Assembly: GCA_963727525.1 (NCBI GenBank)
Contig: CAVSGO010000005.1
Coordinates: forward strand, 512,001 to 576,000
Origin: an uncultured bacterium
Lineage (GTDB): Bacteria; Krumholzibacteriota; Krumholzibacteriia; LZORAL124-64-63
Length of the DNA: 64,000 nt
Direction: 5' to 3'
Position numbers and translations under genes: made by a program. The notes below the pieces were generated by a model. The model was not told the origin of the DNA. It saw only the letters and a program-made list of their open reading frames with translations, and did no database searches. Each line of letters starts with the position of its first letter. Position 1 is the first letter of the stretch. Of this stretch, positions 9,711 to 15,012 are shown piece after piece.

Positions 9711-9751
9711 GCGCGTCAGGCGGCCCTCCGGGCCGCCTTCGTGCTACGCGC
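9711..9751 (-). promoter_or_regulatory. Candidate SECIS hairpin of the zinc-ribbon gene
   Basis: After TGA: G-GCGCGT-AGCACGA-AGGCGGCCC-GGA-GGGCCGCCT-G-ACGCGC; loop 23 nt from UGA, no U-tract. Confidence 0.6.
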
Positions 9752-9941
9752 CTCAGCTGAAGCCGCTACCGCAAGACGGCCCACCTTCGCCGCCGCCGGT
9801 GGCGAAGGTCGACAGGGCGCGCTCCACGTCGTGCGACGCGCACTGCGGGCACTGGGCCTCGCCGGCCTCCATCTCCGCGAATGTGAGGATGTCCTCGAAC
9901 GACGTGCCGCACGCGCGGCAGCTGAATTCGAAGATCGGCAT
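9744..9941 (-). CDS. FmdB-family zinc-ribbon protein, probable C-terminal selenoprotein (..CGSGFS-U-GA)
   Basis: MPIFEFSCRACG...CPQCAS (two CxxC), AGGAGG RBS; TGA at 9753-9755 followed by GGC GCG TAG and a SECIS-like hairpin. Without recoding the CDS ends at 9753. Confidence 0.75.
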
Positions 9942-9973
9942 GAATCCTGTCCTCCTGCTGTCGAACTCCCGGA

Positions 9974-10123
9974 TCACTGTCCGGACTTGGTTTCTTTCGG
10001 TTTCTTGTGCGGGTCTCCGACCTCGCAGACGTCCGCCGCTCAGCCCGGGCGGAAACCGAGCCGCGGCAGGATCACGTTGACCACCACGAGGTAGGCCACG
10101 ATGAAGATGATCAGCTTGATCAC
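9974..10123 (-). CDS. Small single-TM protein with in-frame TGA, probable selenoprotein (not in ORF track)
   Basis: GAGGAG RBS + GTG; MIKLIIFIVAYLVVVNVILPRLGFRPG-[TGA 10040-10042]-AADVCEVGDPHKKPKETKSGQ-stop; GC-ending codons throughout the first 27 codons. Confidence 0.65.
10008..10027 (-). promoter_or_regulatory. Candidate SECIS hairpin of the small membrane protein
   Basis: TGCG-A-GGTC-GGA-GACC-CGCA; loop 21 nt from UGA; same C(GGA)G loop as the other candidate. Confidence 0.6.
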
Positions 10124-10154
10124 GGTCCGGCTCCTCTTCGATCGTCCATCTACA

Positions 10155-10184: not shown

Positions 10185-10212
10185 AATTTATCGGTTTTAG
10201 CCGCCCTGTCAA
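10185..10212 (-). promoter_or_regulatory. Sigma70-type promoter of the two small genes
   Basis: Minus strand TTGACA-N16-TAAATT, divergent from metG. Confidence 0.6.
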
Positions 10213-12141: not shown

Positions 12142-15012
12142 TCAGCGGACGAGCGTCATCTTGCGCGTCAGCACCTCCCCCTCAGCGTCCAGTCGATAGA
12201 GATACACGCCCGTGGCGACGGAATGGCCATGGCTATCCTCGCCGAGCCATACGGCCTCGTGGCGTCCCGCAGGCAGGTCGCCGTGCACGAGGGTGGTGAC
12301 GAGCCGACCACTAATATCGTACACGTCCAGCGCAACGGGGCCAGCCTGCGTCAGGGCAAAGCGAATCTTCGTCACGGGGTTGAAGGGATTGGGTTGAGCG
12401 GCGGCAAGCGCGAGCGCAACCGGCAGATCGTGATCGCCCGCCGCCGTCGGGTAGGGCGTGGTCGACGGCACACCGATGAAGTCGACGAATACGTCGAGTC
12501 CCTCGCTCGCCGTCAAGACGAGCTGGAAGCCCGTCGTCGGCGCCAGCGAGGTGAGATCGAGATCGATCGGACTCGTGTCCGTCACCGGAATGGTGAATGT
12601 ATCTCCCGTGGTGGGACAGTCGATGACGAGATCGCCCGGATTCTCCACGGACGCGATGCGAACCACCACACCCAGGTTCGCCCAGAAGTCATTCCAGACC
12701 GGGATCGGGTGGTTCAGCGTGAGCGACCGCACACCGGTCGGGGTATCGCTCAGGCGCCGGGGCACGCTCGCCAGGTTGATGCCGAGGGAACCGTCGATCG
12801 AGACGTCGGGCCCGGCCGGATTGCCGAACTCACCCTCGCTACCGTCGGTACCGCCCAGCGAGAAGCCGCCGTAGTCCTCCTCGTTGCTTGGCGTGCTGTC
12901 GTCACCCGTGCCGGCCGCGACGATCTCCACCCCGAGGGTGTTGGGGACATACGCGCCCTCGTACTTGTAGTCGTCGTCGTTGTGGATGGCGATCGTCACA
13001 GGGTAGTCGTACGGATTCACCCACTCGCGCGTCTCGTCGTTGTTGTTGTTCCAGACCTCCACTTCCACCCACTCGGGAGGATCGACGGTCCGGTCGAGGC
13101 GATAGACCCGGACGTTCTGGCACCGCGAGTATCCGCCACCAAAGGTGATCTTGAGCTTCTTGCCGGGCGGTATGGTGCGCTCGAACCACTCGCAGTATTT
13201 ATGGTACGTGTGCGTGTCGGGGACGGCGGTGACCGTGTCGTCATAGCTTTCCGAGAAGGCAGCCTCCACGATGGCCACCGCGGCCACCGGATCGGCGCCG
13301 GGTGCGGGTTCGATCCACCCATCGAGGCCCGGCAGATGGATGATGCCGCCGCCCAGCTCGTCGATGTCGCTGGTCTCCTGCTTCGTGCCGGTGCTGTCTT
13401 CCTGCGCCGTGTCGTGCTTGTAGCTGACTTTCGGCACGCCGTTCACGGTGTGGGTCCCGGTGACGACGACAGCATGGCCGCCGTCGCGACGCAGCGTGTC
13501 ATTGTAGATGTAGTAGAACCCCACGCCGAGCTCCACATCCTCCCCGTGCGCCGATTCGGACTCGATCCAGCCACGGTCGGGGAACGCGGTGTCCGCCCCA
13601 TCACTGTCGGTCGCTTGCGACTCGCCCGTGGAACTGGCGACGTTGCCCTCGACGCTCTTGGCCTGGTATTTCACATGGATCGGCAATCCGTACGCCTCGA
13701 TGAAGTCGAGCTTGGCCTTGATGATGTCTTCAGGACCAGCGCCTTGCCGGGCCAGGCGGTTCATGAGATTGCTCAGCTGCTCGAAGGTCTCGCGCAGACC
13801 GGGCGGGAAGTCGATTTCCGGATGCTTGTTCTTCAACCAGGTCAGGCTGTTGGCACACGCGGCCGGCGCGCATCCGTTCCAGTCGGTGGTGGACATGGTG
13901 CTATCGAGCTGCACGTTCGGCATGTCGCACCCGATGAAACTGTTGACCTCGATCTCCAGCGGCAGCGCGGAGGGCAACCACCAGCGGGCAGCACTCACGT
14001 CGATCGCCGGAGACACGCTCGCGCCCGTCAGGCCGTGCGTCTCCACGCGTTCCTGCTGGACGGACGCCGGCCCCTGCATGGCCAGGCTGTTGTACCAGTC
14101 GGTGACCTGATCGTCGTTGAGGGGATCCGCGGTGATCGTGTAACCGTAGACCATGTCCGGCACCACGATGCCGTTCGTGATGGTCATGCCATTCATGGGG
14201 AACCGTACATCGAACGACTCCAGAGGCGGTCCCATGCCAGCTCCCGGCACCAGCATGTTGCGGACGATCCACTCGGCAGTCGTCGAGATGTCCGGGACGT
14301 ATGCCGCCATGTTGAGAAAGCCCATCGCCGGCGGCACCTCGAAGTCGAGGCTCACGCGGCCGATGCTGGAGTTCGGGACGTCTCCGTAGCCCTCGTAACC
14401 GAAAGTCAGCTGTGCGAACGAGACATCGAATTGTGGCGGCGGCACACCGTAGTCGAGGCGAAGCTGGTACGTACCACAATCGCCGCCCCAGCCGTCGACA
14501 ACGATGAAATACGGAATGCCGGCCACGACCGGCAGCGCATCGATGCGTGACACCCATGCGCCACATGGATCTCCGGGTCGGTAGTAGTCATCGTTGCAGG
14601 CCACCGGATTGCCCGGCGTGTAGGCTCCCGCGTAGACGAAGATCTTGGTGTCGTAATCACTGCCGCACAGATCGATCGTGAGCAGGTGATCCTCCTGCGG
14701 CACGTACACGTAGACGACGTCGGGCGACGTCGACCCCGTGGAGGGACACGCCTCGTCGTAGTCGTCGATGTGACTGCAGGTGAAGCCGGTATCGAGGAAC
14801 GGCAAGACCTCGACGAACTGGGCGTCTTGGATGGTCTCGCCTCCATCACGGGTTCCCCCGCCCGCGACGGTATGATGCACGGGATGCGACTTCGGCATGG
14901 TCGGGACGGCGGTCGCGTTCGCCAGCGGCGGACGATCGGCCGGCGTGGCGGCCATGGCCCCGGCCGCCACCGCGAGAACGAGCAGGGAATACACGAGTAA
15001 ACCACGTGTCAT
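12142..15012 (-). CDS. Secreted multidomain protein: PPC-like N-domain, putative papain/C39-like Cys protease core, C-terminal FlgD-Ig sorting domain
   Basis: Signal peptide; NGCAPAACANSLTW, GGHAVVVTG, YKHD; C-terminal QPNPFNPVT...W.GED..G..VATGVYLYRL...KMTLVR. Confidence 0.75.
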   Translation of the reverse strand: MTRGLLVYSLLVLAVAAGAMAATPADRPPLANATAVPTMPKSHPVHHTVAGGGTRDGGETIQDAQFVEVLPFLDTGFTCSHIDDYDEACPSTGSTSPDVVYVYVPQEDHLLTIDLCGSDYDTKIFVYAGAYTPGNPVACNDDYYRPGDPCGAWVSRIDALPVVAGIPYFIVVDGWGGDCGTYQLRLDYGVPPPQFDVSFAQLTFGYEGYGDVPNSSIGRVSLDFEVPPAMGFLNMAAYVPDISTTAEWIVRNMLVPGAGMGPPLESFDVRFPMNGMTITNGIVVPDMVYGYTITADPLNDDQVTDWYNSLAMQGPASVQQERVETHGLTGASVSPAIDVSAARWWLPSALPLEIEVNSFIGCDMPNVQLDSTMSTTDWNGCAPAACANSLTWLKNKHPEIDFPPGLRETFEQLSNLMNRLARQGAGPEDIIKAKLDFIEAYGLPIHVKYQAKSVEGNVASSTGESQATDSDGADTAFPDRGWIESESAHGEDVELGVGFYYIYNDTLRRDGGHAVVVTGTHTVNGVPKVSYKHDTAQEDSTGTKQETSDIDELGGGIIHLPGLDGWIEPAPGADPVAAVAIVEAAFSESYDDTVTAVPDTHTYHKYCEWFERTIPPGKKLKITFGGGYSRCQNVRVYRLDRTVDPPEWVEVEVWNNNNDETREWVNPYDYPVTIAIHNDDDYKYEGAYVPNTLGVEIVAAGTGDDSTPSNEEDYGGFSLGGTDGSEGEFGNPAGPDVSIDGSLGINLASVPRRLSDTPTGVRSLTLNHPIPVWNDFWANLGVVVRIASVENPGDLVIDCPTTGDTFTIPVTDTSPIDLDLTSLAPTTGFQLVLTASEGLDVFVDFIGVPSTTPYPTAAGDHDLPVALALAAAQPNPFNPVTKIRFALTQAGPVALDVYDISGRLVTTLVHGDLPAGRHEAVWLGEDSHGHSVATGVYLYRLDAEGEVLTRKMTLVR

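Follow-up and report, generated by a model that had tools for sequence, protein, structure and literature searches.

A putative selenocysteine-encoding gene for a small single-pass membrane protein, with an in-frame TGA shared across bacterial phyla

The window, which is the whole stretch of DNA that was analysed, is 64,000 nucleotides long. The gene described here lies on its minus strand at positions 10123..9974, directly upstream of a gene of the FmdB family. The features of the locus are listed below.

10185..10212, minus strand: putative sigma-70-like promoter (TTGACA, 16 nt, TAAATT), placed by consensus match only
10131..10136, minus strand: ribosome-binding site GAGGAG with a 7-nt spacer to the GTG, read directly
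9974..10123, minus strand: putative selenoprotein gene, which starts with GTG, has 49 codons (the 28th for Sec) and closes with the terminal TGA 9976..9974, assigned by comparison with orthologues
10123..10121, minus strand: GTG start codon, read directly
10067..10120, minus strand: predicted transmembrane helix, residues 2-19, IKLIIFIVAYLVVVNVIL, hydrophobic; sequence read directly, topology predicted
10043..10066, minus strand: conserved motif LPRLG.xPG (LPRLGFRPG in the window), directly after the helix
10040..10042, minus strand: TGA, residue 28, probable Sec codon (32 of 32 loci in the phylum; Cys in homologues; Sec machinery in the genome)
10025..10027, minus strand: TGC, residue 33, candidate partner Cys of a U-x4-C motif, invariant in alignment A5
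9977..10024, minus strand: charged C-terminal tail EVGDPHKKPKETKSGQ, read directly
10009..10036, minus strand: SECIS-like hairpin, window copy, placed by folds and by the register of the family
9956..9951, minus strand: AGGAGG upstream of the FmdB gene
9753..9941, minus strand: FmdB-family zinc-ribbon gene, 62 aa, over the cut-offs of TIGR02605 and PF09723
9718..9738, minus strand: G+C-rich hairpin AGGCGGCCC-GGA-GGGCCGCCU, 15 nt past the FmdB stop, read directly

Upstream of the in-frame TGA the protein reads MIKLIIFIVAYLVVVNVILPRLGFRPG. Beyond it 21 codons remain open (AADVCEVGDPHKKPKETKSGQ) before the second stop, TGA 9976..9974, which is 32 nt from the ATG (9941) of the FmdB-family gene. 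Orthologues have their start codon at the equivalent position, 2-3 residues upstream of the helix. The putative promoter agrees with the consensus at 10 of 12 positions, and the region has two such sites versus 0.1 expected from shuffles; a transcript from it would begin about 55 nt upstream of the GTG. The gene metG is divergent from the pair formed by the small gene and FmdB. The initial annotation of this DNA had given GAGGAG, a GTG start, a hydrophobic helix, TGA at codon 28, a Cys five residues on and a second stop before the next gene, and this layout was exact.

The window DNA has a G+C content of 65%, both other frames are likewise open over the stretch of the small gene, and the RNA fold of the 103 nt past the TGA is no better than shuffles (z = -0.32). 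The window sequence alone is thus not beyond chance, and it is the comparison with other genomes that makes a small gene with an in-frame TGA more than chance. A small hairpin, CCGGA[CAGUGA]UCCGG (window 9969-9984), holds the terminal TGA of the small gene in its loop, and its stem was flagged as terminator-like on the opposite strand by a terminator scan. Elsewhere in the window, an ORF of 956 residues (12142-15012, minus strand) has a C-terminal end that appears to resemble a type IX secretion C-terminal sorting domain.

The neighbouring 62-residue protein scored 57.8 bits against TIGR02605 (cut-off 31.3) and 48.1 bits against PF09723 (cut-off 34.4). FmdB was found directly downstream of the small gene in all 32 distinct loci of the organism's own phylum, with a gap of 5-68 nt, and at only 1 of 80 loci outside it. 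Within the phylum the small gene is probably co-transcribed with the FmdB-type zinc ribbon from its own promoter, and the hairpin at 9718..9738, which lacks a U-run and went unflagged in the terminator scan, is possibly the end of a two-gene transcript. The FmdB protein is separate and soluble, and unrelated to the small membrane protein. Its residues C8, C11, C31 and C34, which form two CxxC pairs, are invariant across 27 sequences (alignment A4). Outside the zinc ribbon the FmdB proteins of the phylum (27 relatives and the window, A4) have a tail rich in glycine, in which one Cys is nearly invariant and which closes with GGCGxGGF[TS]. At one relative (L021:1502-3007) the FmdB frame extends for about 500 low-complexity residues instead of stopping after about 65, probably owing to a lost stop or an assembly error. 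Rare Sec forms of the FmdB family from ocean metagenomes are mentioned in PMC2398784; the 'fmdB' of PMC4807772 is a formylmethanofuran dehydrogenase and is irrelevant to the zinc-ribbon FmdB.

A DNA search with subsequent tblastn placed the same small frame ahead of FmdB in the window's own genome and in 11 relatives from other genera, 12 genomes altogether. All 12 have a stop at the equivalent position with similarity continuing beyond it; the first stops are all TGA and the second stops are mixed. The read-through peptides were aligned (alignment A1), and a profile built from A1 matched 147 of the 208 genomes of the phylum (about 70% of species). By family, the carriers number 86/90 (f1), 40/43 (f3), 5/8 (f7), 7/13 (f9), 1/1 (f8), 4/10 (f6), 3/12 (f5), 0/7 (f2) and 0/23 (f4). 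Each of the matches listed contains a TGA, except for one weak match of 19.7 bits. Inside the frame, all 32 distinct loci have TGA at this codon and none has TAA or TAG there, versus terminal stops of TAG (15), TGA (12) and TAA (5); the difference in usage gives a Fisher p of 2e-8, calculated over relatives that are not independent of one another.

Unbiased profile searches of other phyla gave a similar picture. Among the Acidobacteriota, 43 of 151 sampled genomes (about 28%) carry the family, with TGA in 43 of 44 matches, the remaining match spanning the helix only; among the Planctomycetota the figures are 13 of 151 genomes and TGA in 13 of 13 matches. Further carriers belong to the Verrucomicrobiota, Akkermansiaceae, Desulfobacterota, delta-proteobacterial groups, Spirochaetota/Leptospirales, Obscuribacterales, Chloroflexota, Gemmatimonadetes, Zixibacteria, SAR324, Binatia and others. 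A related-locus search based on A1 found no stretch conserved enough, so a degenerate DNA pattern was used instead, with one genome per species, and returned at least 120 loci. This pattern allows no codon but TGA, TGC or TGT at the site and demands a following ATG, so its counts are no test for TAA or TAG, for which the profile searches serve. For the 120 other-phylum loci listed, 119 sites were obtained (105 TGA, 13 TGC/TGT, 1 TGG). At least one carrier is an isolate, Tautonia sp. JC769 (locus L090, TGA form).

A search of 5.8 billion proteins returned 354 matches, and 60 of the best 120 of these were read. The column of the TGA holds Cys in 48, W in 6 and Ser in 1, and 5 are stubs that end just before it; the stubs produced by gene callers for this family have 26-44 residues. 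The 48 Cys homologues are full-length proteins of 41-96 residues with the pattern ..RWVLPRLGVPT-C-MSGxC... The six with W are P0005, P0010, P0012, P0016, P0018 and P0118. P0016 corresponds to locus L066, the DNA of which has TGA both at the Sec site and at a second W, so that its W arose because the gene caller read TGA as Trp; some public gene calls use a TGA=Trp code on these contigs. Decoding of TGA as Trp or Gly (codes 4 or 25) was rejected, because TGA terminates the FmdB gene of the window and 12 of the 32 small genes. The ESM Atlas gave only a lead, 123 clustered entries that are annotated as 'hypothetical protein' and have no other name (score 0.86). Alignment A5 contains 49 sequences (32 own-phylum TGA forms and 17 Cys forms); the U/C28 column and C33 are invariant in it, as are P20, G23 and P26. 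The Cys forms of Planctomycetota have extra Cys (CMSGGCCGPSAC, CMSGSCSTGC).

Codon usage past the UGA was compared among the 100 listed other-phylum TGA forms. The Cys at +5 is encoded by TGC in 54 and by TGT in 35 and is missing in 11, and the residue at +2 is Ser from both codon families (at least 47 TCN and 17 AGC). These codons lie outside the stem, and their variation suggests selection at the protein level past the UGA. Within the own phylum, two changes in the spacing between UGA and Cys are of 3 nt each, i.e. whole codons. The conservation after the Cys (S-I-G-D-R, D-V-E-S-R-R) is mostly the hairpin read as codons and therefore proves nothing on translation. The tails of the relatives are variable and charged, run for 15-39 codons from the UGA and are poorly conserved past the hairpin. 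In other phyla the +1 frame and the reading frame stay open over about the same length, and in the own phylum the +1 frame is open further. GC3 is moderately higher than GC2 (0.75 vs 0.50 in the own phylum, 0.59 vs 0.49 in others), and differences between close pairs at codon positions 1, 2 and 3 number 27, 34 and 43, a slight excess at position 3. The tail sequence thus appears to carry a weak coding signature.

According to section 5 of PMC13188914, the bacterial SECIS (bSECIS) model has a loop of 3-9 nt with G in the first two loop positions, a stem of 4-16 bp, a distance of 16-37 nt after the UGA and an MFE of -7.5 kcal/mol or lower. As judged from predicted folds, the hairpin of the family fits this published model. 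The TGA forms have a stem of about 7 pairs and a G-first triloop at a fixed distance, 21-23 nt after the UGA. The own-phylum hairpin reads CUCGAUC[GGN]GAUCGGG, its loop beginning at nt 25 as GGN in 27 of 32 loci, and an example from other phyla is ACGUCGA[GUC]UCGACGU with the loop at nt 27 (loop GUC in 42 and loop start at nt 27 in 50 of the 100 listed TGA forms). The bSECIS constraints together with at least 5 unbroken pairs were found in 31 of 32 own-phylum loci and 96 of the 100 other TGA forms listed, versus 5 of 13 Cys forms and 181 of 660 shuffles. With a stem of 7 or more pairs these four figures become 28/32, 60/100, 0/13 and 32/660, respectively. The hairpin is kept whatever gene lies downstream.

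Pairing was also assessed by covariation. In the 100 listed other-phylum forms all 7 pairs change on both sides and 70.3% of the cells pair, versus 53.1% in shuffles (0 of 500 reach 70.3%) and 28-44% with a slid partner. The own-phylum stem is 96.4% paired, with one pair A-U in 22 and G-C in 9. The tested stem was named from single-sequence folds of the same sequences, so that the pairing counts are favoured, and the slid and shuffled controls were run for this stem. RNAalifold returned no consensus structure for the 100-sequence alignment because about a quarter of the hairpins are in another register. No Rfam family matches the region (best E = 0.27, unrelated).

The copy in the window is the weakest of the 32 in the phylum and the sole one to fail the 5-pair test: its longest unbroken run is 4 pairs, which becomes 6 if a bulged A is allowed. 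In the register of the family it reads CG(A)GGUC[GGA]GACCCG at 10025..10010, with the loop at nt 25-27 counted from the U of the UGA; the minimum-energy fold is instead 10036..10009 with the loop AGGU. It barely agrees with the bSECIS model (GGUC[GGA]GACC, spacing 21 nt, -14.1 kcal/mol over 48 nt from the UGA). Its sequence is also the most divergent of the phylum, AADVCEVGDP versus the consensus GPxxCSIGDR, and the window's own copy may conceivably be in decay.

The window genome (4.66 Mb, 8 contigs) has selA (462 bits), selB (302 bits) and selD (365 bits), all over the curated cut-offs, and a tRNA-SeC identified by ARAGORN. From this gene complement, the organism is able to decode UGA as Sec. 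Its selD (G000:C8:225636-226547, locus L010) is itself a selenoprotein gene with one in-frame TGA (..FAKSAG-U-AAKLAPG..), and the selD hairpin CCAGG[GGA]CCUGG, with loop nt 24-26 after the UGA, has the same type and place of loop as the small gene. Across phyla, selA exceeded its cut-off in 15 of 15 genomes with TGA forms versus 3 of 13 with Cys forms (Fisher p = 2e-5), where the TGA-form genomes were picked across phyla, the Cys-form genomes are those of all 13 listed loci, and absences are soft, genome completeness not being given. Within the window's class selA does not discriminate, as it is present in 40 of 41 genomes.

Taken on the comparative evidence, positions 10123..9974 (minus strand) are very probably a genuine Sec-encoding gene of this small membrane-protein family, with a probability of roughly 0.88. 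The initial annotation had proposed read-through of the UGA into a TM-anchored microprotein with a U-x4-C motif, and this is supported by the invariant TGA, the Cys homologues, the hairpin and the Sec machinery; its further idea of a redox motif at the membrane surface stays at the level of a proposal. Its question whether codon 28 is always TGA or TGY is answered by TGA in 32 of 32 distinct loci of the own phylum and Cys in the full-length homologues, and the downstream Cys, the conservation of which it had left to be checked, is invariant in the 49 sequences of A5 and present in 89 of the 100 listed other-phylum TGA forms. Homologues that stop at this position with mixed stop codons had been named as the refuting case, and the opposite was found, namely a uniform TGA inside the frame and mixed stops at its end.

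Comparison across genomes indicates that codon 28 is recoded in the standard bacterial way, with SelB and Sec-tRNA brought in by the hairpin that follows the codon. For the protein itself the following mode of action may be proposed. The helix would anchor the protein with the N-terminus outside and the tail in the cytoplasm: its N-terminal side is acidic or neutral and its C-terminal side carries Arg and Lys, which by the positive-inside rule, an established principle, predicts a cytoplasmic tail. Sec28 and Cys33 would then be located a few residues from the cytoplasmic face of the membrane, where they could cycle between the selenol/thiol and the selenenylsulfide or jointly bind a soft metal, presumably acting on or with a larger partner. 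For a redox or metal role of the small protein we would give even odds.

The gene neighbourhood bears on this role. A survey outside the own phylum took in 100 flanking ORFs (108 others lay beyond it), which came from about half of the loci retrieved, and no universal partner gene was found among the 100 ORFs scanned. The neighbours include thioredoxin/DsbD, three pyridine-nucleotide disulphide oxidoreductases, OsmC, a P-type ATPase and a permease of the ABC-3 metal type. A gene similar to cytochrome bd subunit I (PF01654) is located just downstream at four loci of Planctomycetota (L060, L061, L064 and L078; three Cys forms and one TGA form); cytochrome bd oxidases have tiny single-helix subunits. 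At a locus of candidate division CSSED10-310 (L101:615-1150) the frame of the TGA form is open into a thioredoxin-like domain (..VDFWAAWCAPC..) and Arg replaces the Cys at +5; the locus holds a natural fusion or, alternatively, a thioredoxin gene that abuts in frame.

A true selenoprotein in which Sec and Cys serve metal or selenium/sulphur handling (chelation of a soft metal, or delivery to a partner) and do not form a redox couple is a tenable reading, which we place somewhat below even odds. The C-x4-C spacing differs from the CxxC usual for redox pairs, the Cys forms of Planctomycetota have additional Cys, the neighbour in the own phylum is a four-Cys zinc ribbon with C-terminal GGCGxGGF[TS], and a P-type ATPase and the ABC-3 metal-type permease occur as neighbours elsewhere. 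Thiol redox chemistry is indicated instead by the thioredoxin/DsbD, pyridine-nucleotide disulphide oxidoreductase and OsmC neighbours in other phyla and by the L101 read-through frame that enters a thioredoxin domain.

It is improbable that the UGA is a true stop, in which case the product would be a membrane peptide of 27 residues and the hairpin would serve to stabilise the transcript, to attenuate it or to control the gene downstream. The 'protein' conservation past the codon is indeed mostly accounted for by the hairpin, the tail is under weak constraint with other frames open too, TGA often serves as a stop in these genomes (12 of 32 terminal stops), and gene callers do record stubs of 26-44 residues. 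Yet continuous Cys homologues align over the codon with the same C-x4-C spacing, no TAA or TAG occurs in the 32 loci, and the listed matches of the profile searches that span the site all have a TGA except the one of 19.7 bits. Further points against a stop are the synonymous variation of the +5 Cys and +2 Ser codons outside the stem, the retention of the hairpin irrespective of the downstream gene, and the finding of TGA forms only in genomes with selA (15 of 15). That there are two cistrons, a helix peptide stopping at the UGA and a second, hydrophilic peptide restarting at TGA-ATG, has next to no chance and was rejected: ATG follows the TGA in 100 of the 100 listed other-phylum forms, for which the search pattern required it, but in 27 of 32 own-phylum loci the TGA is followed by GGN or GCN (GCG in the window), so that no restart codon exists there, the Cys forms carry the same Met within one continuous frame, and the link to selA is left unexplained.

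If the small gene is read as encoding a selenoprotein, its mechanism of recoding is textbook material, which its protein is not. It resembles other bacterial selenoprotein genes, e.g. the organism's own selD, in the in-frame TGA, the small G-first loop 21-23 nt downstream, the existence of Cys homologues, the dependence on selA/selB/selC/selD and the agreement with the bSECIS constraints. Searches of Pfam and NCBIfam with the window protein and 8 Cys homologues gave no family at E <= 1 beyond chance-level matches to the helix. A catalogue in a review of May 2026 has 119 selenoprotein families, nearly all with a model identifier (PMC13188914, Table 1), and this table, taken as a whole, contains no single-pass microprotein and no entry with a U-x4-C motif. 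The small protein (43-70 residues, one helix) differs from the catalogued selenoproteins in being far smaller than most of them and in matching no model, whereas most of the 119 families are identified by Pfam/NCBIfam models. In the passages of BSepDB (111 families) and deep-Sep that were compared, the word 'membrane' is absent, and a full-text literature search returned no description of such a family. A groundwater-MAG study (ref. 66 of PMC13188914) is cited there as holding unvalidated candidates. The family was likely missed because the UGA comes after only 27 codons and the protein is too short for significant tblastn pairs of Cys and Sec forms.

In architecture the small protein is also like the eukaryotic proteins SELENOK and SELENOS. 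These have a single-pass anchor and a short, charged and probably disordered segment in the cytosol that carries Sec next to the C-terminus, with the eukaryotic SECIS in the 3' UTR; in SELENOS, Cys and Sec form a selenenylsulfide. Nothing but the architecture is alike: the Sec of the small protein would lie next to the membrane, and the small protein has no Pfam match to SELENOK or SELENOS at E <= 1. Other small membrane proteins, such as the 'FeoB-associated Cys-rich membrane protein' and the CydX-type small subunits of cytochrome bd, share with the protein described here an N-terminal helix and a short Cys-bearing tail, about 30-60 residues in total. The protein described here differs in matching no NCBIfam or Pfam model at E <= 1, and we know of no Sec forms in the FeoB-associated Cys-rich or CydX-type families.

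On balance we favour the view that the small protein belongs to an undescribed, very common family of single-pass membrane selenoproteins of 43-70 residues (helix, LPxxG.PT/G, U-x4-C), of which no member had been recognised before, a bacterial counterpart of SELENOK/S that was missed by all pipelines. It would then be among the smallest selenoproteins and, among those of bacteria, apparently the first to consist of a single membrane anchor that places Sec beside the bilayer. As even a product that stops at the UGA has the entire membrane helix, selenium could switch the output of the gene between this helix alone and a helix that bears a reactive Sec/Cys head. Genes with very short frames before the UGA are a blind spot of gene callers and selenoprotein finders alike. 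With Cys forms in existence and at least one isolate among the carriers, the family would offer a small and tractable object for the role of Sec at the membrane surface, and, as it is common across phyla, selenoproteome counts for soil and sediment bacteria would be short by one gene.
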